Shown here piece after piece: positions 4,969 through 49,075 of a DNA stretch of 64,000 nt. Source of the DNA: Candidatus Daviesbacteria bacterium (GTDB taxonomy: Bacteria; Patescibacteriota; Microgenomatia; Daviesbacterales; UBA10151); NCBI GenBank assembly GCA_016176335.1, contig JACOXI010000003.1, forward strand, positions 258,477 through 322,476. The letters run 5' to 3'. Below the pieces are notes generated by a model that did not search any database, was not told the origin of the DNA, and worked only from the letters and a program-made list of their open reading frames with translations. The translations under genes were made by a program, and so were the position numbers. Position 1 is the stretch's first letter. The number at the start of each line of letters is the position of its first letter.

Positions 4969-4980
4969 TATTAAAAAAAA

Positions 4981-5892
4981 ATGGTTAAATTTCACATAAA
5001 AACAGAAAAAGAAGTAGAAAATTTTGCAAAAATTGTTATTGAACCGTTGGAGGTTGGGTTTGGCCATACTTTGGGTAACAGCCTAAGACGAGTTCTCTTA
5101 ACATCATTGGGCGGTTCGGCTGTAACATCAGTTAAGATAGACGGAGTTTCACATCAATTCTCAACAATAGAGGGAGTGTTGGAAGATGTTATCGAAATAA
5201 TTTTGAATGTTAAAAAAATCCGCCTTCAGGTGGATTCAGAAGATCCGGTTAGATTGTTAATTAAAACATCAGGGAAAAAAGAGATTAAAGCCGGAGATTT
5301 TGAAGTTGCGGGAGCCGCACAGGTAGTGAATCCCGATCAACATATAGCAACTCTGACGGATACAAAATCCAAACTAAATATGGAGATGATTGCAGAAATT
5401 GGAAAAGGGTATTCTTTGGCAGAAGAGCGGAAAAGCAATGAAATAGGAATTATCGCAGTAGATGCATTATTCACCCCTGTTGTAGCAGTAAATTACAATG
5501 TTGAGCCGACAAGGGTTGGAAGAAGAACGGATTTTGACAAATTGGTTTTAGAGGTGACAACAGACGGATCTATTACTCCACAAGATTGCTTAAATGAGGC
5601 TGCAAAAATTTTATCAGATACTTTTAAAAAAATCTATGAGCCGGATATAGAAGAAAAAGTTGAAGAGACAAGTCTCGCAATTTCTGAAGAAGTGTTAAAA
5701 ATGACAATAGAAGAGTTGGATCTTCCTGTGAGAATAACCAATGCTCTAAAAGCTATAGAGATAAATATCTTAGAGGATTTGATAAATATTCCTAAAGCGC
5801 AACTTTTAAAAGCCAAAAATTTGGGTACCAAATCAATTAGTTTAATTTCTGATAAATTAGTTGAGAGGGGGTTGTCTTTGCGTGAGGCATAA
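4981..5892 (+). CDS. rpoA: DNA-directed RNA polymerase alpha subunit
   Basis: N-terminal domain (…FGHTLGNSLRRVLLTSLGGSAVTSVKIDGV.HQFSTIEGV…) and the C-terminal domain. Confidence 0.9.
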   Translation: MVKFHIKTEKEVENFAKIVIEPLEVGFGHTLGNSLRRVLLTSLGGSAVTSVKIDGVSHQFSTIEGVLEDVIEIILNVKKIRLQVDSEDPVRLLIKTSGKKEIKAGDFEVAGAAQVVNPDQHIATLTDTKSKLNMEMIAEIGKGYSLAEERKSNEIGIIAVDALFTPVVAVNYNVEPTRVGRRTDFDKLVLEVTTDGSITPQDCLNEAAKILSDTFKKIYEPDIEEKVEETSLAISEEVLKMTIEELDLPVRITNALKAIEINILEDLINIPKAQLLKAKNLGTKSISLISDKLVERGLSLREA

Positions 5893-8768: not shown

Positions 8769-8816
8769 CAATTAATTTTCCACTTGCCAAAATAGGTAAT
8801 TTGTGGTTTAATAATA

Positions 8817-8936
8817 ATGCATCAAGAGTGCCGCCTAAAAGGCGAGCCGGCAACCGAAAAGTTAACGGTGCCAAAGATGATGTGCCCTGCTACATAAGCG
8901 AGGAAAACTTAATCCTCTCTTATGAGAGGTTTTTTT
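8817..8936 (+). promoter_or_regulatory. SAM riboswitch (SAM-I/SAM-IV clan, SAM-IV-like core) with intrinsic terminator, 5' of metK
   Basis: …GCAUCAAGAGUGCCGCC-uaaaa-GGCGAGCCGGCAACC…CGGUGCCaaagAUGAUGUGC… matches the S-box/SAM-IV conserved strings (AUCAAGAG, GAGUGCC, CCGGCAACC, GGUGCC, P1 closing GAUGAUG). A terminator hairpin CCTCTCttatGAGAGG plus T7 follows at 8914–8936. It lies directly upstream of metK. Confidence 0.55.
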
Positions 8937-11156: not shown

Positions 11157-11228
11157 CGGGGATTAGGTCATCGGTAGACCGCTCGGATGGGGTCCGAGAA
11201 GCAGAGAGTTCAATTCTCTCATCCCCGA
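11157..11228 (+). tRNA. tRNA-Pro (anticodon GGG)
   Basis: Hand-folded cloverleaf: acceptor CGGGGAT/ATCCCCG (C1:G72, typical of tRNA-Pro), D-stem GGTC/GACC, anticodon stem CTCGG/CCGAG with loop AT-GGG-GT, T-arm GAGAG-TTCAATT-CTCTC, discriminator A. Confidence 0.8.
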
Positions 11229-18473: not shown

Positions 18474-19535
18474 ATGAAAAAAATTTTAGTGATTTTGGGT
18501 CCAACTGCAACAAGAAAAACTGACTTGGCTTTATATTTGGCCAAAAAACTTAATGGAGAGTTGGTGGCTTGTGATTCTAGACAAGTATATAAGGGATTAG
18601 ATATTGGCACTGGAAAGTTACCAGCCCCAATGTCAAATCTCAAATGTCCCGTCAAAGACGAGGCTCGCTCGCCTCGCAGCGAAGCAGCGGGCCTCTGGCG
18701 GCAAATGTCAAATGTAGAAAAAAAGAATGGATATTGGAAGATTGATGGGATAAAAATACATATGTATGATGTTGTTTCTCTAAAGATTCAGTTTACTGTG
18801 GCAGATTATGTTAAAGATGCAAATAGGGTAATTAATGATATTGAGAAAAGAGGGAAATTGCCAATTATAGTGGGTGGGACAGGATTGTATGCTAAAGCAT
18901 TAATTGAGGGATTGTCTTCTCTTGAAACACCCGTAAATAAAAAATTAAGGCAGAAATTAAACTTTTTATCTTTAAAACAACTGCAAAAAAAACTGCAAAA
19001 AATTGCATCGGAGAAATGGCAGTCTTTGAATCATTCCGATAAGAATAATCCAAGAAGATTAGTTCGGGCAATTGAGTTAGAAATTAATAAGGGAGATACG
19101 GGAAATCGGGGCAATTGGGGAAATCAGAGATTAGCAAGAGAATTTGATATTTTAAAAATTGGATTAAATGCGTCTAGAGATATATTGTATGAAAAAATTA
19201 ATAAAAGAGTTTATAAGTGGATTGAGGAGGGAATATTAGAAGAAGTTAAAAATTTAAGGAGTAAGGGGATAAGCAAAGATAGGTTTAAAGAATTGGGACT
19301 AGAGTATTCGGTTGCTTTGGAATATTTGGATAAAAAAATTACGCTTGAGGAAATGGTAAATAAGATGCAAACTAAAGTCAGGCAATATGCAAAGAGGCAA
19401 ATTACCTGGTTTAAGAGGGATAAAAATATTTTTTGGTTTGATATATCGGATAAAGATTATCTAATAAAAGTAGAAAACTTCATCACTAAATGGTATCATC
19501 AGTTAAAGATAACAAAATATGCCGCAAAAAATTGA
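18474..19535 (+). CDS. miaA: tRNA dimethylallyltransferase MiaA carrying an in-frame GC-rich palindromic insertion
   Basis: P-loop GPTATRKT, DSRQVYKGLDIGTGK, then about 35 extra residues (…PAPMSNLKCPVKDEARSPRSEAAGLWRQMSNVEKK…) before the conserved …HMYDVV…/…QFTVADYVKDA… block. The rest matches the MiaA family. Confidence 0.85.
   Translation: MKKILVILGPTATRKTDLALYLAKKLNGELVACDSRQVYKGLDIGTGKLPAPMSNLKCPVKDEARSPRSEAAGLWRQMSNVEKKNGYWKIDGIKIHMYDVVSLKIQFTVADYVKDANRVINDIEKRGKLPIIVGGTGLYAKALIEGLSSLETPVNKKLRQKLNFLSLKQLQKKLQKIASEKWQSLNHSDKNNPRRLVRAIELEINKGDTGNRGNWGNQRLAREFDILKIGLNASRDILYEKINKRVYKWIEEGILEEVKNLRSKGISKDRFKELGLEYSVALEYLDKKITLEEMVNKMQTKVRQYAKRQITWFKRDKNIFWFDISDKDYLIKVENFITKWYHQLKITKYAAKN
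18648..18701. repeat. GC-rich palindromic mini-element (copy 1) inserted in-frame in miaA, flanked by direct heptamer repeats
   Basis: CCGTCAAAGACGAGGCTCGCTCGCCTCGCAGCGAAGCAGCGGGCCTCTGGCGG is about 70% GC in an AT-rich gene. It is flanked by AATGTCAAATCTCAAATGT on the left and CAAATGTCAAATGTAG on the right. It shares the GGCTCGCCTCGC / CGTCAAAGACG / GCGAAGC.GCGGGC words with the copies at 22902–22962 and 37600–37629. Confidence 0.6.
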
Positions 19536-20487
19536 TATCTCTTATAAAACAGTAATTTTTATTGCGATCTTCGTTATCACTCTCTGGGCAATTTATTTAA
19601 TACGAGATCTGCTGGTTATTCTATTTGTCTCAATCATTTTTATGTCAGCCTTAAATCCCCTGGTAAGTTTCTTTGTAAAAGCTAAACTACCGAAAGTTTT
19701 GAGTATTGGTATAACCTACCTTATTATAATCGCTGTTGGCGCAGCAGCGTTTGCCGCCATTTTACAACCGCTTATTGAAGAAAGCAGACGGCTGATCTTG
19801 ACTTTGCCGTATCTGTCGGGGCAATTTTTTAACATCGCTAACATAAATGAATCGGTCTTTCAGTCCGAACTAACCAATCTTTCAAAAAACGCATTCACTA
19901 TAACGCTTGCTATATTTGATAATTTATTGGCGATAGTATTTCTTTTGGTGATCACATTCTACATGCTTTTGGAACGCGATAATCTCAAACAGCGGCTGGC
20001 GTCTCTATTTATTGGAAAAGAAGATAGAGTAAAGAGGTTAATCGTCAGAATTGAGGAGAAATTGGGAAGTTGGTTAAGAGGACAACTAGTTTTAACTTTG
20101 ATTATTGGTCTCCTATCTTATATAGGATTAACTATTTTAAATATCCCTTACGCCCTCCCACTAGCTGTTCTGGCAGGAATATTGGAGGTGGTACCTGTAA
20201 TTGGGCCTATTATTTCTGCTATTCCGGCGATACTCATTGCCATCACCGTATCTCCCTTTTTAGGACTGGGTGTTGCGGCAATGTATGTTGTGATTCAACA
20301 ATCGGAAAATCATTTAATTGTTCCTCAAGTTATGAAACGGGCAGTAGGACTGAATCCTTTAATGGTGATTTTGGCAATTGCTATCGGATCGAGACTGCTG
20401 GGTTTCGCAGGAGCATTGCTCGCTGTTCCATTTACGGTTGTATTGCAGATTATAGTTGCGGAAATTATGGAAGATAGAAAAACTTAG
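19519..20487 (+). CDS. AI-2E family transporter (PerM/YhhT, UPF0118)
   Basis: 322 aa, about 8 TM helices, characteristic length and conserved C-terminal GLxGxxLAVP motif. Confidence 0.7.
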   Translation: MPQKIDISYKTVIFIAIFVITLWAIYLIRDLLVILFVSIIFMSALNPLVSFFVKAKLPKVLSIGITYLIIIAVGAAAFAAILQPLIEESRRLILTLPYLSGQFFNIANINESVFQSELTNLSKNAFTITLAIFDNLLAIVFLLVITFYMLLERDNLKQRLASLFIGKEDRVKRLIVRIEEKLGSWLRGQLVLTLIIGLLSYIGLTILNIPYALPLAVLAGILEVVPVIGPIISAIPAILIAITVSPFLGLGVAAMYVVIQQSENHLIVPQVMKRAVGLNPLMVILAIAIGSRLLGFAGALLAVPFTVVLQIIVAEIMEDRKT

Positions 20488-20492
20488 TGCCT

Positions 20493-20877
20493 AGGAAGCT
20501 AGTAAGCCAGATTCTGTTTTCCCGCTTCGACGAATCGAGGCGAGTAGATGATCATTTATCTAGAATGTGATTTTTAATAGTCACATCTTCCCGGTTTTAC
20601 GGGATGCTCCTGACTCCGGTTATTGAACGAGCTACTCAACCGATTCTAGGATTGCAGCAGGGAGGATTATCCCTCTGTACCAGAAGGTACAGAGAACCCG
20701 GTAGCTTGGTCGTTTCATTCGGCGCCACCCGATTCGTCACTGTTACTCTATACTGGGTCTTGCGACCCCCCGCTTGTGCGGGGCACCTTGCTCTATGCTG
20801 TCTGGACTTTCCTGTCGCCCGCAACTGCGTAGCTGTTGGCGACCGATCATCCTTCTTCCTAGGCTTCCATATTTTAC
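20493..20877 (-). ncRNA. rnpB: RNase P RNA, bacterial type A
   Basis: The minus strand reads 5'-GGAAGCCUAGGAAG…GGCGACAGGAAAGUCCAGACAGCAUAGAGCAAGGUGCC…ACAGUGA…CCGAAUGAAACGACC…ACAGAAUCUGGCUUACUAGCUUCC-3'. It contains the universally conserved P4 halves (AGGAAAGUCC…; …ACAGAAnCnGGCUUA), the GNRA/P-loop blocks and P1 pairing between the ends. The 385-nt GC-rich block sits in an AT-rich genome. The ORFs 20604–20903(+) and 20636–20899(-) lying inside it are spurious. Confidence 0.75.
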
Positions 20878-20980
20878 TATATAATGAGTCTAGATTCAAA
20901 TAAGGACCTGCTTCGCACTTACGCTTGTGAATATTTTAGCTCGTGCTCGCAGAACCTGTTAATTTTGTAGAAACAAAATT

Positions 20981-22510
20981 ATGCTCTCAAAAATTTACTC
21001 AGGAGCCAATATTGGGCTGGATGCTGTTACAGTAACTGTAGAAGTTGATGTTTCATCAACAGGATTACCTCATTTTATTATGGTAGGACTGGCTGATAGA
21101 GCTGTGGAAGAAAGTAAAGAACGGGTCAGATCAGCCATAAGAAATAGCAAAGTTGAATTTCCGGATCATAAGATTACTATCAATTTGGCACCGGCAGATT
21201 TACCCAAAGAGGGTCCACATTATGATTTGCCCATTGCGTTAGGGATACTGTTGGCCTCCGGTCAAATTACAAACAGGGCAGGTATAGATTTAAATCAGTC
21301 CTTGGTTGTAGGGGAATTGTCTTTGGATGGGACATTAAGATATACCCGTGGTATTTTACCGATTGCCTTACTTGCCAAATCTTCCGGTTTCCAAAAAATT
21401 ATCGTTCCTTTTGAGAATGCGAAAGAAGCATCTGTGGTTGAGGGGGTTGAGGTTTTAGCTTTTCATTCATTGTCTGAAGTAATGAGAGTTATTTTAGGTC
21501 AGCAAGATTTGACCCCTTTTGTACGAGAAAATCTAAATTTGGGAGAGGATTTAATATTTGAGTATGATTTTTCCCAAATTAAAGGTCAAGAGATGGCAAA
21601 AAGAGCGCTTGAGGTTGCAGCTGCGGGAGGACATAATATTTTACTTAAGGGTCCACCTGGTGCAGGTAAAACTATGTTAGCTCGAGCTTTTCCTTCGATT
21701 TTACCTCCGCTTTCATTTGAGGAAGCAATTGAAGTGACAAAGATTTATTCTATTGCCGGACTTTTGGAATCGGGTAAGTCTTTGGTTACAACAAGACCTT
21801 TTAGATCCCCTCATCATACTGCATCACATGTAGGTTTAATTGGAGGTGGGAACAATATCAGACCGGGAGAGATTTCACTTGCTCACAGAGGAGTGTTATT
21901 TTTGGATGAGCTACCGGAGTTCCCCAGACAAGTATTGGAGGTTTTACGACAGCCAGTGGAGGATCATAAAGTGACTATTTCCCGCTCCTCCGGTTCTCTG
22001 ACCTTTCCTGCTCAATTTATTCTTTTGGCTGCCCAAAACCCCTGTCCTTGCGGGTTTTTGGGAGACTTGAAAAAAAGTTGTACTTGTATGCCGGGTCAGA
22101 TTGCAAAATATCGAAAAAGAATTTCAGGACCTCTTTTGGATCGTATAGATATTTACCTTGAAGTACCTGCGGTTGCAGTTGATAAATTGACAACCGGGGA
22201 AGATGCGGAATCTTCCCATCAGATTAGAGATAGAGTCAACAAGGCGCGACGCACCCAAAAAACAAGATTTGGGGGTAGAATTTTAACAAATTCCGAAATG
22301 ACCAACCAAGATATAAAGCAATTTTGTAGCATCACTTCAGAGGGATTAGAGATCTTGAAGAAGGCGATTTCTTCTTTAAACCTTTCTGCCAGAGGTTATC
22401 ATAGAGTATTAAAGCTCTCAAGGACTATCGCGGATATTTCGAATTCGGATAATATTCAATTGGAGCATATAGCCGAGGCACTGCAGTATAGACTTCGAGA
22501 AGAAATTTGA
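20981..22510 (+). CDS. comM: YifB/ComM family Mg-chelatase-like AAA+ ATPase
   Basis: N-terminal Lon-like domain MLSKIYSGANIGLDAVTVTVEVD…, Walker A GPPGAGKT and the ChlI-type C-terminus. 509 aa. Confidence 0.9.
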   Translation: MLSKIYSGANIGLDAVTVTVEVDVSSTGLPHFIMVGLADRAVEESKERVRSAIRNSKVEFPDHKITINLAPADLPKEGPHYDLPIALGILLASGQITNRAGIDLNQSLVVGELSLDGTLRYTRGILPIALLAKSSGFQKIIVPFENAKEASVVEGVEVLAFHSLSEVMRVILGQQDLTPFVRENLNLGEDLIFEYDFSQIKGQEMAKRALEVAAAGGHNILLKGPPGAGKTMLARAFPSILPPLSFEEAIEVTKIYSIAGLLESGKSLVTTRPFRSPHHTASHVGLIGGGNNIRPGEISLAHRGVLFLDELPEFPRQVLEVLRQPVEDHKVTISRSSGSLTFPAQFILLAAQNPCPCGFLGDLKKSCTCMPGQIAKYRKRISGPLLDRIDIYLEVPAVAVDKLTTGEDAESSHQIRDRVNKARRTQKTRFGGRILTNSEMTNQDIKQFCSITSEGLEILKKAISSLNLSARGYHRVLKLSRTIADISNSDNIQLEHIAEALQYRLREEI

Positions 22511-22524
22511 AATTGACAACAATT

Positions 22525-22562
22525 GAAAAACCACGTTTCAATTTACATGAACGTGGTTTTTC
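22525..22562. terminator. bidirectional intrinsic terminator between comM (+) and the small zinc-ribbon ORF (-)
   Basis: AAAAACCACGTT-tcaatttacatga-AACGTGGTTTTT is a perfect 10-bp stem flanked by A-runs and T-runs. Confidence 0.7.
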
Positions 22563-22594
22563 AAAATGGTGAATTCACCATAAATCGTGTGGGA

Positions 22595-22732
22595 TTAACC
22601 ACCGATTTTAAACATTGAGGTGCTACAAACCGGGCATCTGCCTTTTGAGGCTTTTTTACCATTTTTCATGGTTACCCCTTGGACATCTTCAGCATCTCTT
22701 TTTTGGCGGCATTTGACGCAATACATTTGCAT
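22595..22732 (-). CDS. small zinc-ribbon protein (45 aa; missed by the >=60-aa ORF track)
   Basis: Strong RBS GAAAGGAGGTGAG 8 nt upstream of the ATG. Product MQMYCVKCRQKRDAEDVQGVTMKNGKKASKGRCPVCSTSMFKIGG has CxxC…CxxC. It ends at the convergent terminator. Confidence 0.5.
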   Translation of the reverse strand: MQMYCVKCRQKRDAEDVQGVTMKNGKKASKGRCPVCSTSMFKIGG

Positions 22733-22750
22733 ACTAAAACTCACCTCCTT

Positions 22751-23176
22751 TCAGAATATATTAATATTCAAAACATTATTTTTCATTAGAAAATAAAGGA
22801 TGATTTGTAAACCCAATGCAGTACCTGCAAAGATAGAAATCTTCAGCAGATCTTGACGAAGGTAGGTGGTGTCATCGATAGTGACTTCCACTTTTGTGGT
22901 AGACGGCTCGCCTCGCTGTCGCCCTTGGCGAACCTCGTCAAAGACGGGCGAAGCGGGCAGACTGTAGATGTTAGACTGATCATTCCTGCCATAGAATTGC
23001 TGGCGAAGGATCTTGAGGCGTTTTTCCAAATCTGACTGATGTTTGCTCTGGTGTAGGGCCATGTTAGGTTCAGCTACGCACACTTGAGCCTTAGAGAACA
23101 TACAATTGAGTTCTCGCAGGATCAAATCGATTAGATTTGAGCCTATCACGCACAGTGTACGCTTGTCAAGCACCAA
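22751..23176 (-). CDS. hypothetical C-terminally membrane-anchored protein containing GC-rich element copy 2 (coding status uncertain)
   Basis: 141-codon ORF with a TTG/GTG start and C-terminal hydrophobic helix ISIFAGTALGLQIILYFLM. It carries the in-frame GC-rich repeat at 22902–22962. No recognisable family. Confidence 0.3.
   Translation of the reverse strand: MVLDKRTLCVIGSNLIDLILRELNCMFSKAQVCVAEPNMALHQSKHQSDLEKRLKILRQQFYGRNDQSNIYSLPASPVFDEVRQGRQRGEPSTTKVEVTIDDTTYLRQDLLKISIFAGTALGLQIILYFLMKNNVLNINIF
22902..22962. repeat. GC-rich palindromic mini-element (copy 2, permuted relative to the miaA copy)
   Basis: GACGGCTCGCCTCGCTGTCGCCCTTGGCGAACCTCGTCAAAGACGGGCGAAGCGGGCAGAC. It shares GGCTCGCCTCGC, CGTCAAAGACG and GCGAAGCGGGC with the copy at 18648–18701, in a different order. 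Confidence 0.5.
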
Positions 23177-36768: not shown

Positions 36769-38151
36769 ATGCAAGCATATATGGATCGCACATTAATTTT
36801 GGATTGTAAAGAGAAGGTTGGAAAAGAGGTGAAAATTTGTGGATGGGTTGTAACTGGCCGAGATCACGGAAAGCTCGTTTTTCTGGATGTCTTAGACAGA
36901 AGTGGAGTTATTCAAGTATTAGCATCTGGGGCTGACAAAAATGTTCCAGAGCTAAGACCCCAGGATGTAGTTTGTGTTACAGGAACTGTCAATAAAAGAC
37001 CACAAAATCTGGTTAATAAAAATATCCCTACGGGTGAAATAGAAATTTCAGCAGAAACTATTGAGGTTTTATCAAAAGCTCAAGAATTGCCTTTTGATAT
37101 GGGAGGTAAAGATTTGGATTTGCAGTTGCCAACTCTTTTAGATTTCCGATCCTTAACTTTACGTCACCCTAAGCTTAAGTCTATTTTCAAAGTTCAGGCA
37201 AGTCTGCTTGAGGGATTTAGGCAAGCAGCTTTAGATTTAGACTGTACAGAGATTGTAGTACCAACAATTGTGGCAGGAGCAACAGAAGGAGGGGCAGAAG
37301 TTTTTAAGATAGATTATTTCGGCCGTAAAGCCTACCTTTCCCAAAGTCCCCAGCTTTACAAACAAATGTTAGTGCCTGTATATGAGCGGGTCTTTACTAT
37401 TGCTAAGGCTTACCGTGCCGAACCCTCGGTTACCACCAGACATTTAACCGAAAGCACACAACTGGATATTGAAATTGGTTTTATAGAATTTGAAGACTTG
37501 CTGGATTTCCTGGAGGCAGTGGCGGTTAAAATGTTAACTGTTGCGGAGGAACAGTGCGGAGATATTTTATCTGAATTTGGTGTTGAAAAAATTGCTTTTG
37601 GCTCGCCTCGCTCCGCGGGCGGAGCGGGCAAAATTCCCAGACTGACCTTAAGAGAAGCTCAAGAAATAATCTTTAAAGAGTTTGGCAGAGATAATAGGAA
37701 TGAGAAAGATTTGACCCCGCAAGATGAGATAGATTTGTGTCAATGGTCGAAAGATAAACATCAATCGGATTTTGTCACCATCACTCATTTTCCAACTTCG
37801 GCAAAGCCATTTTACACCATGCCTAATCCAAAAAATCCAGAGTATAGTTTAAGTTATGACCTTCTTTTTAGAGGGGTAGAAATTTTAAGTGGTAGTCAGC
37901 GTATTAATGATTATCAGCAATTGCTCGATAGCATAAAAGGTCGGGGTATGAATCCTGATAATTTTCAGTTGTATCTTCAGGCTTTCCAGTATGGTATGCC
38001 CCCGGAGGGAGGATTTTCCTTCGGACTTGAGAGGGTTACGATGCATGTTCTAAATTTATCAAATATTAGGCAAGCCAGTCTTTTTCCAAGGGATATGGAA
38101 AGAGTTGATATCAGATTATCTCAAAACTCAAATCGCAAATCTCAAAACTAA
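36769..38151 (+). CDS. aspS: aspartyl-tRNA synthetase (archaeal/bacterial short type) with an in-frame 30-nt GC palindrome insertion
   Basis: OB-fold N-domain and class II motifs (FRAE…, …GGFSFGLERV…). A 10-aa GSPRSAGGAG insert is encoded by element copy 3. Confidence 0.9.
   Translation: MQAYMDRTLILDCKEKVGKEVKICGWVVTGRDHGKLVFLDVLDRSGVIQVLASGADKNVPELRPQDVVCVTGTVNKRPQNLVNKNIPTGEIEISAETIEVLSKAQELPFDMGGKDLDLQLPTLLDFRSLTLRHPKLKSIFKVQASLLEGFRQAALDLDCTEIVVPTIVAGATEGGAEVFKIDYFGRKAYLSQSPQLYKQMLVPVYERVFTIAKAYRAEPSVTTRHLTESTQLDIEIGFIEFEDLLDFLEAVAVKMLTVAEEQCGDILSEFGVEKIAFGSPRSAGGAGKIPRLTLREAQEIIFKEFGRDNRNEKDLTPQDEIDLCQWSKDKHQSDFVTITHFPTSAKPFYTMPNPKNPEYSLSYDLLFRGVEILSGSQRINDYQQLLDSIKGRGMNPDNFQLYLQAFQYGMPPEGGFSFGLERVTMHVLNLSNIRQASLFPRDMERVDIRLSQNSNRKSQN
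37600..37629. repeat. GC-rich palindromic mini-element (copy 3) in-frame in aspS
   Basis: GGCTCGCCTCGCTCCGCGGGCGGAGCGGGC has a near-perfect palindromic centre GCTCCGCGGGCGGAGC. It shares GGCTCGCCTCGC…GCGGGC with copies 1 and 2 and is flanked by AAAATT on both sides. Confidence 0.55.
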
Positions 38152-42633: not shown

Positions 42634-42704
42634 TGCGGGATGGTGAAATGGTATCACAACTGGCTCTGAACCAGTTATTCTAGGTTCAAATCCTAGTCCC
42701 GCAG
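42634..42704 (+). tRNA. tRNA-Gln (anticodon CTG)
   Basis: Hand-folded: acceptor TGCGGGA/TCCCGCA (U1:A72, typical of bacterial tRNA-Gln), D-stem GTGA/TCAC, anticodon stem ACTGG/CCAGT with loop CT-CTG-AA, T-arm CTAGG-TTCAAAT-CCTAG, discriminator G. A -10 TATAAT lies 7 nt upstream. Confidence 0.8.
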
Positions 42705-48847: not shown

Positions 48848-49075
48848 AAAAAATCCCCTTTCGGGGATACAATAAACACCAATTGGTGTATTTTTCTTTC
48901 TTTCATCCCGACTGTACCCTTCGATACTTCGACTTCGCTCAGTACTCAGGGTTCTTCACTTTGTGAAGAACGGTCGGCTTTGGACTTTCACCAAATCATC
49001 CATATACCGTTTCTGGTATGTGGTCGTGGGCTATACCACCGATTTTGACTTACACAAAACCCCGAAAGAACAGCT
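48848..49075 (-). promoter_or_regulatory. FMN riboswitch (RFN element) with terminator/SD-sequestering expression platform, 5' of the rib operon
   Basis: The minus strand reads …UCUUUCGGGGuuuuGUG.AA.UC…AUCGGUGGUauAGCCCaCGAcc…GGAUgauuugGUGAAAGUCCAAAGCCGACCGU…AAAGU…GAAGGGUACAGUCGGGAUGAAAGAAAG. This matches RFN conserved blocks (CGGGG, ACCGG.GGU, AGCCCGCGA, AAGCCGACAGU.AAAGU, GGAUG.AAGA). It is followed by AUCCCCgaaaGGGGAU plus U6 directly abutting the ribE ATG; the 3' half-stem GGGGA is the likely SD. Confidence 0.7.

Follow-up and report, generated by a model that had tools for sequence, protein, structure and literature searches.

What is a 30-nt GC-rich palindrome doing, in frame, inside the gene of an essential enzyme in an AT-rich genome? 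The question is raised by a 64,000-nt stretch of DNA from Candidatus Daviesbacteria (contig JACOXI010000003.1, positions 258,477 to 322,476; the whole of it is called here the window), where the unit GGCTCGCCTCGCTCCGCGGGCGGAGCGGGC lies within the aspartyl-tRNA synthetase (AspRS) gene (Table 1). An earlier note, made from these letters alone, had described the unit as a near-perfect palindrome and ascribed it to a mobile or recombinogenic repeat family rather than to coincidence. The location and the reading frame proved exact. We conclude with high confidence that the unit belongs to a dispersed DNA-level repeat that is tolerated as a loop insertion, and we regard it as quite probable that this is a selfish or recombinogenic GC-rich palindromic repeat, translated in AspRS as a tolerated loop. 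As to how it is mobilised, our confidence in any particular mechanism is low.

Within the 64 kb, which have a GC content of 38.4%, the unit is the only stretch of at least 24 nt with a GC content of 80% or more. The full 30-mer occurs once in the window at up to three mismatches, and it has no match in 100 shuffles. The description as a near-perfect palindrome holds for the core, a perfect inverted repeat, but was overstated for the outer arms GCTCGC/GCGGGC, which pair imperfectly. The predicted RNA fold of the element has an energy of -19.2 kcal/mol on the plus strand (z -2.0) and of -21.2 kcal/mol on the minus strand (z -4.1). When all 40-nt segments of the plus strand were scanned over the 64 kb, the AspRS element (-20.0 kcal/mol) and a related copy in the miaA gene (-22.9 kcal/mol) were the top two hairpins in stability, against a mean of -4.4 ± 3.0. 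The element was not called as an intrinsic terminator by a consensus scan: it has no T-run, and the next bases are AAAATT. Rfam gave no match at any element copy of the window at the gathering threshold, none at the elements within 18500-23100 (two of the three window copies) at E <= 5, and none at the elements of 18 element-bearing tiles from other genomes.

The host gene is intact. Its product is 100% identical to the Candidatus Daviesbacteria AspRS on a 456,706-bp contig at NCBI and matches the Thermus AspRS2 (1N9W) over the full length (E=3.5e-93). The segment GSPRSAGGAG occupies residues 277-286, that is, 10 codons between ...EKIAF and KIPRL.... The insert lies in a loop, as had been proposed for this region, and structure alignments have a gap there in both 1N9W, between ...PSF and P-QDIPRL, and 3NEL, while matches to the bacterial-type AspRS end upstream of it, at query residues 252-265. 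An AlphaFold model based on a 34-sequence alignment (predicted local distance difference test score, pLDDT, 63), which was used solely for placing the insert, puts it with low confidence in a coil after the helix 241-269 and before the strand 291-293; the pLDDT falls below 50 at residues 281-286, inside the insert. Judging from the open frame and the intact gene only, the insert is presumably translated as a tolerated loop.

The state of this site in related proteins was compared in 120 close AspRS homologues (71-100% identity), which include the window's own protein, P0001; here and below, P#### stands for homologous proteins and L### for loci, or tiles, from other genomes. The common state, found in 104 of the 120, is F-G-K-I, as in ...EKIAF-G-KIPRL.... 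Extra residues exactly at the F|G point were found in 16 distinct proteins, with conserved ends and a variable middle. One glycine thus belongs to the empty site, and the 10 codons reported earlier, though present, amount to a net gain of 9 codons (27 nt). In the filled sites the initial GGC never varies, and the final glycine codon is GGC, GGA or GGT, like an ordinary synonymous site, which suggests that the host glycine codon is probably the 3' one (37627-37629) and that the inserted DNA proper would be 37600-37626 (27 nt).

Conservation of the insert is seen at the level of DNA. In six insert-bearing genes, the 30-nt forms are identical at 27-30 of the 30 nucleotides and at 9-10 of the 10 third codon positions, while the whole AspRS genes of these carriers share 70-77% of their nucleotides (83% for the window and L001) and, at third codon positions, only about half (46-55%; 68% for the window and L001). 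The codons of the element are GC-rich despite the AT-rich genome, and the two C>T changes in the element of L001 still allow G.U pairs in the sense strand. In a neighbor-joining tree built with the insert masked, the 16 carriers are scattered, and for 14 of them the nearest insert-less relative is closer than the nearest insert-bearing one; P0003, for instance, is 91% identical to the insert-less P0070 and 82% to its nearest carrier. By Fitch parsimony, presence and absence of the insert require at least 15 state changes. Orientation and frame are identical in all 16 carriers, at the same codon boundary. The 10-residue segment is thus patchy among related taxa and, as described below, the element is dispersed elsewhere, which is the reverse of a segment conserved in the absence of the repeat. 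With patchy carriers and near-identical third positions, selection on an ancestral loop at the protein level cannot explain the pattern; what it calls for is either a recent or repeated acquisition, or gene conversion that renews the insert, combined with its precise loss.

In some AspRS genes a second in-frame palindrome, CTGCCTGCCGGCAGGCAG(GTC), encoding LPAGRQ(V), stands two codons downstream of the main insert. This 18-nt palindrome was seen at L007:1058-1140 and in the AspRS P0029 and P0113, and the peptide LPAGRQ recurs in another MiaA, P0135. It matches the outer arms around many copies of the main element and may be an "empty" outer palindrome; it is not present in the 64-kb window.

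The window holds two further copies, and all three are intragenic. The earlier note had the AspRS unit share its first 12-mer, GGCTCGCCTCGC, with the miaA copy; there the match is 11 of 12 (at 18666), and the exact partner is the copy at 22905 instead. Three matches to the 12-mer at up to two mismatches are by themselves within chance (7 of 100 shuffles). What goes beyond chance are the paired arms, the hairpins and the copies in other genomes. The core of the miaA copy, CGCTCGCCTCGC...GCGAAGCAGCGGGC, lies at 18666-18692, and the alignment of MiaA proteins shows the whole copy to be inserted behind the GTGKxP motif, in a loop that is hypervariable. Among the 119 MiaA homologues no other one has this insert, and several carry other GC-rich-looking inserts there. 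The copy at 22905 is read on the minus strand as PASPVFDEVRQGRQRGEP in the hypothetical protein MBI2018400.1 (gene ~22751-23101), where it sits in a variable linker of a small conserved membrane-protein family, most members of which are without it; its fold has an energy of -33.4 kcal/mol (z -3.5). Within the miaA loop (18630-18716), the insert is bracketed by the short direct repeats ATGTCAAAT...AAATGTCAAATG, which encode a duplicated MSN(L/V)K motif, and the length of the MiaA loop is extremely variable among Daviesbacteria (proteins of 307-370 aa).

The same arms recur far outside Daviesbacteria. An exact-pattern scan with GGCTCGCCTCGC-N(1-31)-GCGRAGCGGG over ~185,000 species-representative genomes of GTDB matched at least 119 tiles of up to 8 kb each; the counts of copies and tiles given from here on are among the matches listed. 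About 25 of these are in genomes of at least 58% GC, which is about the chance expectation there, and the remainder are in low-GC genomes. At least 55 tiles bear labels of the Candidate Phyla Radiation (CPR), in many lineages: Daviesbacteria, Roizmanbacteria, Levybacteria, Curtissbacteria, Gottesmanbacteria, Woesebacteria, Moranbacteria, Kuenenbacteria, Falkowbacteria, Nealsonbacteria, Giovannonibacteria, Yanofskybacteria, Wildermuthbacteria, Kerfeldbacteria, Berkelbacteria and Saccharibacteria. Other labels are Gammaproteobacteria (13 tiles) and Bacteroidota (8), as well as Elusimicrobia, Omnitrophota and Planctomycetota. Several metagenome-assembled genomes (MAGs) were matched on 2-5 tiles, and one MAG of Lentimicrobiaceae on at least five. 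On one of these five tiles a sorting domain of the type IX secretion system (Por_Secre_tail, E=5e-15) is found in an encoded protein, so that at least one host is genuinely outside the CPR, in the Bacteroidota. The Gammaproteobacteria labels on the low-GC MAGs may be wrong. L069 has a Pfam match to a DUF2298 membrane protein, which we take to be a CPR-typical gene, and a VanW-like ORF in L022, judged by eye, is presumably CPR-typical as well. The MAGs labelled "uncultured Gammaproteobacteria", all of low GC, come from binchicken/SRP co-assemblies (L018, L022, L030, L036, L041, L051, L069, L090, L093, L108, L112, L118 and L127).

Copies fall into a few size classes (Table 1) and reappear at non-orthologous places. 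The 30-nt variant of the window occurs, letter for letter, in a second Daviesbacteria MAG (L056), where it sits in a gene other than AspRS, and a near twin of the 51-nt form that L007 has in AspRS was found in a Curtissbacteria genome (L083), at a locus unrelated to AspRS. Some copies are nested within an outer palindrome CCTGCCTCGCC...AGGCGGG, others within another widespread repeat, GTCATTCCCGCGAA...CGGGAATCCAG, which flanks them in L078, L089, L041 and L091. The inserts of VIPAK...AGIH or IPKQVR type in the MiaA proteins P0153 and P0155 are presumably translations of a repeat of this latter kind. The nesting suggests that several palindromic repeat families co-colonise these genomes. Arm segments are duplicated in L061, in L076 and in the miaA copy, and the units of head-to-tail arrays share the terminal GGC (L070), as in the GGY overlap in AspRS. 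The array of L070 (1377-1446) consists of three head-to-tail units (27+24+24 nt) that overlap by the terminal GGC; it lies in the frame, taken from stop to stop, of a Saccharibacteria ORF of 483 aa, near its 5' end (codons 9-17), and would read SPLRSEASPLRSEASPLR. As for a phage vector, no BLAST match was found in 50,697 phage genomes, and a scan of IMG/VR with the pattern gave only three matches, all in contigs of 54-62% GC. A literature search for the arm sequences, for the encoded peptides, or for CPR together with palindrome, MITE (miniature inverted-repeat transposable element) or RAYT (REP-associated tyrosine transposase, REP standing for repetitive extragenic palindrome) found no relevant paper, and the family is apparently undescribed. 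Beyond what had been noted from the window, then, the repeat occurs in many CPR lineages and in Bacteroidota, and at its AspRS site polymorphism is recurrent and involves variants of several sizes.

The relation of the copies to reading frames was considered next to their sequence. A copy was counted as clearly coding if its frame continues without a stop for 80 codons or more to either side, and 29 of 88 copies are clearly intragenic in this sense. The length is a multiple of three in 84 of 95 low-GC copies, in all 29 clearly coding ones, in line with the in-frame bias that the earlier note had put up for checking, and also in 42 of the 50 that are not clearly coding; by label, the figures are 52 of 57 in CPR tiles versus 4 of 9 in Bacteroidota tiles. 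Since the same length rule applies to most copies outside a clear coding context, it is a property of the main family variants and not only a filter acting after insertion. The clearly coding copies are in both orientations (16 plus, 13 minus), and all six classes of frame and orientation are occupied, which argues against a function of the protein segment or of the mRNA sense strand. The 24- and 30-nt forms are stop-free in all six frames. The commonest 33-mer has one stop, TGA in frame +0, and the copies read in that frame have TGG, TTA, TAT or similar there.

The peptides specified by intragenic copies are accordingly diverse: GSPR..GEAG, RLASL..RSG, ARLA..AKRA, PAS(P/Q)..RGEP, ARFA..ARRA and PLR..SEAS. 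Host genes in other genomes include two class I aminoacyl-tRNA synthetase-like proteins in one MAG (assigned by N-terminal sequence only) and DnaJ. Essential genes are not a special target of the element, as linkers, hypothetical genes and intergenic stretches hold copies as well. Two DnaJ proteins, those of L108 (~4970-5010) and L114, have the same 33-mer in the G/F-rich region, in the same orientation and frame, at a mutual identity of only 32%. The G/F-rich linker of DnaJ is a second candidate for a recurrent insertion site. The DnaK of L108, a MAG labelled Gammaproteobacteria, is 64% identical to that of the Microgenomates MAG L124.

Four other accounts of these data were weighed. The one that survives best, though we consider it unlikely, takes the hairpin for a cis-acting structure of benefit to the host, its copies having spread by recombination. 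It could bind a protein or act in supercoiling, as has been proposed for REPs, stabilise the mRNA or offer a target to RNase, or make translation pause for the sake of co-translational folding. This account would fit the conserved synonymous positions of the element, its exceptionally stable local folding, the retention of G.U pairs in the sense strand of L001 and the same arms across phyla. It sits badly with copies that take either orientation and every frame, that are found within genes as well as outside them, and whose positions in unrelated proteins are themselves unrelated, with a terminator signature or Rfam match lacking at the elements, and with AspRS orthologues most of which do without the insert, its presence and absence changing at the level of the tips. 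An origin on the spot, by template switching or slippage at a GC-rich seed, with similar sequences elsewhere being convergent, is less likely still. Convergence cannot account for sequences of 24-33 nt that are identical between unrelated genes and between phyla, a second genus has the twin of the long AspRS variant at a different locus, and the many identical copies at non-orthologous places make a pure in-situ origin untenable, even though several features would suit it: the nested size series of +18, +21, +27 and +48 nt at one AspRS site, arms composed of short direct repeats, (YTCGC)n and (GCGAR)n, that permit register shifts, the duplicated arm segments of L061, L076 and the miaA copy, and flanking direct words of variable length. 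Slippage may still remodel the copies.

We give very little credit to an adaptive protein insertion, in which an ancestral GSPR...AG loop would have been kept for the function of AspRS, for example for contact with tRNA or the transamidosome, its GC content being incidental. The insert is indeed in frame within an intact essential enzyme, the ends GSPR/AG of the peptide are conserved among carriers, and the site corresponds to the extra-domain position of the bacterial-type AspRS. Just 16 scattered orthologues of the 120 carry it, however, the conservation is one of nucleotides, including third positions, with GC-rich codons in a genome of 38% GC, and the same DNA is read elsewhere in other frames and from the opposite strand. 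Finally, amplification can produce short GC-rich palindromes, but an artefact of assembly or sequencing, such as a chimeric hairpin or adapter, has a negligible chance of being the explanation, as the insertion and its variants are present in independent NCBI, ENA, JGI and Logan assemblies, with intact reading frames and syntenic flanks.

We therefore return to the selfish or recombinogenic repeat, which would account for the data as follows. The repeat would be non-coding by origin and consist of the arms GGCTCGCCTCGC and GCGRAGCGGGC around a variable centre, in units of 21-54 nt. Its entry into the AspRS gene would have been an event at the DNA level, between the codons for Phe and Gly (TTY|GGY AAA), where nine extra Gly/Ser/Pro/Arg/Ala residues would be translated in an insertion-tolerant surface loop, leaving the enzyme intact. 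Because the common forms are a multiple of three in length and have no stop in any, or in hardly any, of the six frames, a copy that arrives in a gene would yield a loop insertion rather than a knockout, and the repeat could persist in gene-dense CPR genomes. Its spread would most likely proceed by hairpin-based or single-stranded DNA-based insertion catalysed in trans, or by gene conversion between copies or alleles, and its loss by hairpin-promoted slippage between the flanking GGC/GGY repeats. The candidate enzyme for the trans route is an IS200/RAYT-like Y1 transposase. When the 771 ORFs adjoining copies were clustered, Y1_Tnp (PF01797) genes were found in at least 5 of ~88 low-GC tiles, and in the Bacteroidota MAG L065/L128 such a gene lies between two 69-nt repeats that contain the element.

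A number of observations weigh against this account. The 69-nt repeats of L065/L128 are a local repeat family of their own, and metagenome relatives of this Bacteroidota Y1 gene are flanked by other palindromes; the Y1_Tnp genes of L042 and L083 (both labelled CPR), L036 (labelled Gammaproteobacteria) and L089 (labelled Bdellovibrionales) are likewise flanked by other repeats, and there is no Y1_Tnp gene in the 64-kb window. A fixed-length target-site duplication was not found around the copies: direct words in the two flanks are enriched, those of at least 6 nt being shared in 13 copies versus 3.4 expected, but they vary in position and length (3-11 nt) and are often non-adjacent. Nor was a clear target consensus found; the flanks GCC| and |AGG stem from composite copies, and |AAA was observed 10 times versus 4.1 expected. 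The density of copies is modest, with 3 per 64 kb in the window and 0-1 per 20 kb in relatives. Lastly, the 16 AspRS copies have a uniform orientation. This fits one old insertion followed by many precise losses, or an exchange of alleles, at least as well as repeated transposition, and, together with the shared GGC/GGY ends, it would fit allele conversion or hairpin-promoted precise deletion equally well.

Two candidates concerning mobilisation were rejected. The clustering of neighbouring ORFs was not accepted as proof of a cognate transposase, as the repeats that flank the Y1_Tnp genes differ from the element. An insertion at the apex of pre-existing palindromes was dropped too: the complementarity of the flanks is marginal (3.9 versus 3.6 of 8 under the null) and comes from the subset of copies nested in CCTGCCTCGCC...AGGCGGG. 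As to the Y1 genes themselves, each of four is enclosed by a pair of direct repeats of its own that contain small hairpins, for instance ACACCCCAAGGGTGT, in a RAYT-like arrangement; the pairs lie at L042:95-145 and 815-865 and at L083:341-377 and 1013-1049, and those of L036 and L089 at contig starts. Two Y1 loci are at the ends of contigs, which is where they should lie if assembly is interrupted by the repeats.

Among known systems, the closest in function appear to be the Rickettsia palindromic elements (RPEs) and the GC clusters of yeast mitochondria. RPEs are palindromic repeats inserted in frame into genes of a small AT-rich genome that are unrelated to one another and often essential; the additional peptide segments to which they give rise are compatible with protein function, and no transposase is known for RPEs (PMC10969869). 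An in-frame palindrome with an intact product is likewise found in AspRS, in MiaA and in 29 other copies of the present family. The two differ in that RPEs are of ~100-150 bp and have a conserved, family-specific peptide, whereas the CPR units are of 21-54 nt and occupy all six classes of frame and orientation; also, RPEs are confined to Rickettsia, while the present family is spread over many CPR lineages and Bacteroidota, the comparison being one of features. The yeast GC clusters form in-frame polymorphic insertions in var1, have short terminal repeats, merge and shuffle, and spread by gene conversion (PMC8811140). Shared with them are a GC-rich palindrome in an AT-rich genome, polymorphic in-frame insertion, terminal repeats (GGC/GGY) and nested or composite copies. 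Their sequences are unrelated, they are found in an organelle and mostly between genes, and their terminal repeats are AG/TAG, so that the resemblance is functional only; unidirectional conversion has been demonstrated genetically for the GC clusters.

With the REPs, which underlie the concept of REPIN and RAYT (PMC3337134), the family shares an imperfect palindrome of 20-40 nt in multiple copies (three in the window), sometimes clustered or in tandem, and Y1_Tnp genes in the same genomes, one of them flanked by repeats containing the element. REPs are extragenic, usually species-specific and tagged with GTAG or CGTC at one end (PMC3733652). The present copies depart from this in location, about a third of them being clearly intragenic, and such a tag or its complement lies within 8 nt of an end in only 3-4 of 87 copies; nor is any RAYT flanked by the present element in CPR genomes among the tiles listed. 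With MITEs the repeat has in common that it is non-autonomous and has terminal inverted repeats. MITEs are usually of 50-500 bp, however, and the present units are much shorter and without a fixed-length target-site duplication; no parent insertion sequence with the same ends as the element was found among the 771 neighbouring ORFs.

The genomes of the CPR bacteria, or Patescibacteria, are tiny and densely packed with genes, and mobile DNA is usually said to be scarce in them. This picture would change with a repeat whose persistence is due to its being translatable. Such a repeat would also explain many of the odd "low-complexity" inserts rich in Gly, Ser, Pro, Arg and Ala in CPR proteins, affect the alignment of orthologues, the prediction of protein structures and the annotation of MAGs, and serve as a natural marker, and a highly polymorphic one, for recombination among populations. 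That the arms are nearly identical in different phyla implies horizontal spread or a shared machinery acting in trans. A bolder proposal, which we offer as tentative and hold to be rather doubtful, is that of ultra-short mobile hairpins (21-33 nt net), codon-phased and stop-free in six frames, which would form one family across phyla and colonise protein-coding genes of CPR bacteria, among them those for aminoacyl-tRNA synthetases, MiaA and DnaJ. Insertion and excision would be specific for site and orientation, at particular codon boundaries, by homing-like conversion or by a novel transposition of a single-stranded DNA hairpin; if true, the family would be a general driver of the evolution of loops and linkers in these minimal genomes. 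With the thousands of filled and empty sites that the repeat offers in metagenomes, such as the Phe|Gly site of AspRS with its state changes, the movement of in-frame palindromic elements, RPEs being an example, would become tractable by comparative and population genomics.

Table 1. The AspRS element, its site in other genomes, related copies and size classes, and other features of the window
Feature	Location	Strand	Remarks
Non-discriminating archaeal-type aspartyl-tRNA synthetase gene, intact	36769..38151	+	Protein matches and structure alignments
GC-rich palindromic element copy in AspRS	37600..37629	+	30-nt unit GGCTCGCCTCGC-TCCGCGG-GCGGAGCGGGC
Perfect inverted repeat CGCTCCGC / GCGGAGCG	37609..37626	.	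8+2+8 with GG spacer; core hairpin of the element
Related copy in miaA	18648..18701	+	54 nt, in frame; encodes PVKDEARSPRSEAAGLWR; most stable hairpin of the window
Related copy GGCTCGCCTCGC...GGGCGAAGCGGGC	22905..22958	+	54 nt; exact 12-mer GGCTCGCCTCGC at 22905
AspRS insert variants			GSPRSAGGAG, GSPRFVGGAG, GSPREAG, GSPRGEAG, GSPRSAGEAG, GSPRFAGEAG, GLPRPESGAG, GSPHSTDGAG, GSPRSAPASTKVAGGAG
Empty AspRS site	L002		GCT TTC GGT AAA ATT
Filled AspRS site, +18 nt	L008		GGCTCGCCTCGCGAAGCGGGC
Filled AspRS site, +21 nt	L006		...CGCGGCGAAGCGGGT
Filled AspRS sites, +27 nt	Window, L001, L005		30-mer and close variants
Filled AspRS site, +48 nt	L007		27-nt form with nested 21-nt GC-rich piece
Family class, 24 nt			GGCTCGCCTCGC-[T/G]-GCGAAGCGGGC
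Family class, 30 nt			...CGC-TTCGCGG-GCGAAGCGGGC
Family class, 33 nt			...CGC-TGAAGCTNNG-GCGAAGCGGGC
Family class, 42-54 nt			Rarer forms
Bacterial class A RNase P RNA	20487-20861	-	98.7 bits, E=4e-30, just below the Rfam gathering score of 100 and therefore missed at the default threshold
FMN riboswitch	48891-49073	-	Rfam
SAM-I/IV riboswitch	8814-8920	+	42.3 bits versus cut-off of 41.1
tRNA	11157-11228	+	
tRNA	42634-42704	+	

Apart from the repeat, the window contains a few structured RNAs (Table 1). The two ORFs of 87-99 aa listed at the RNase P RNA are spurious.

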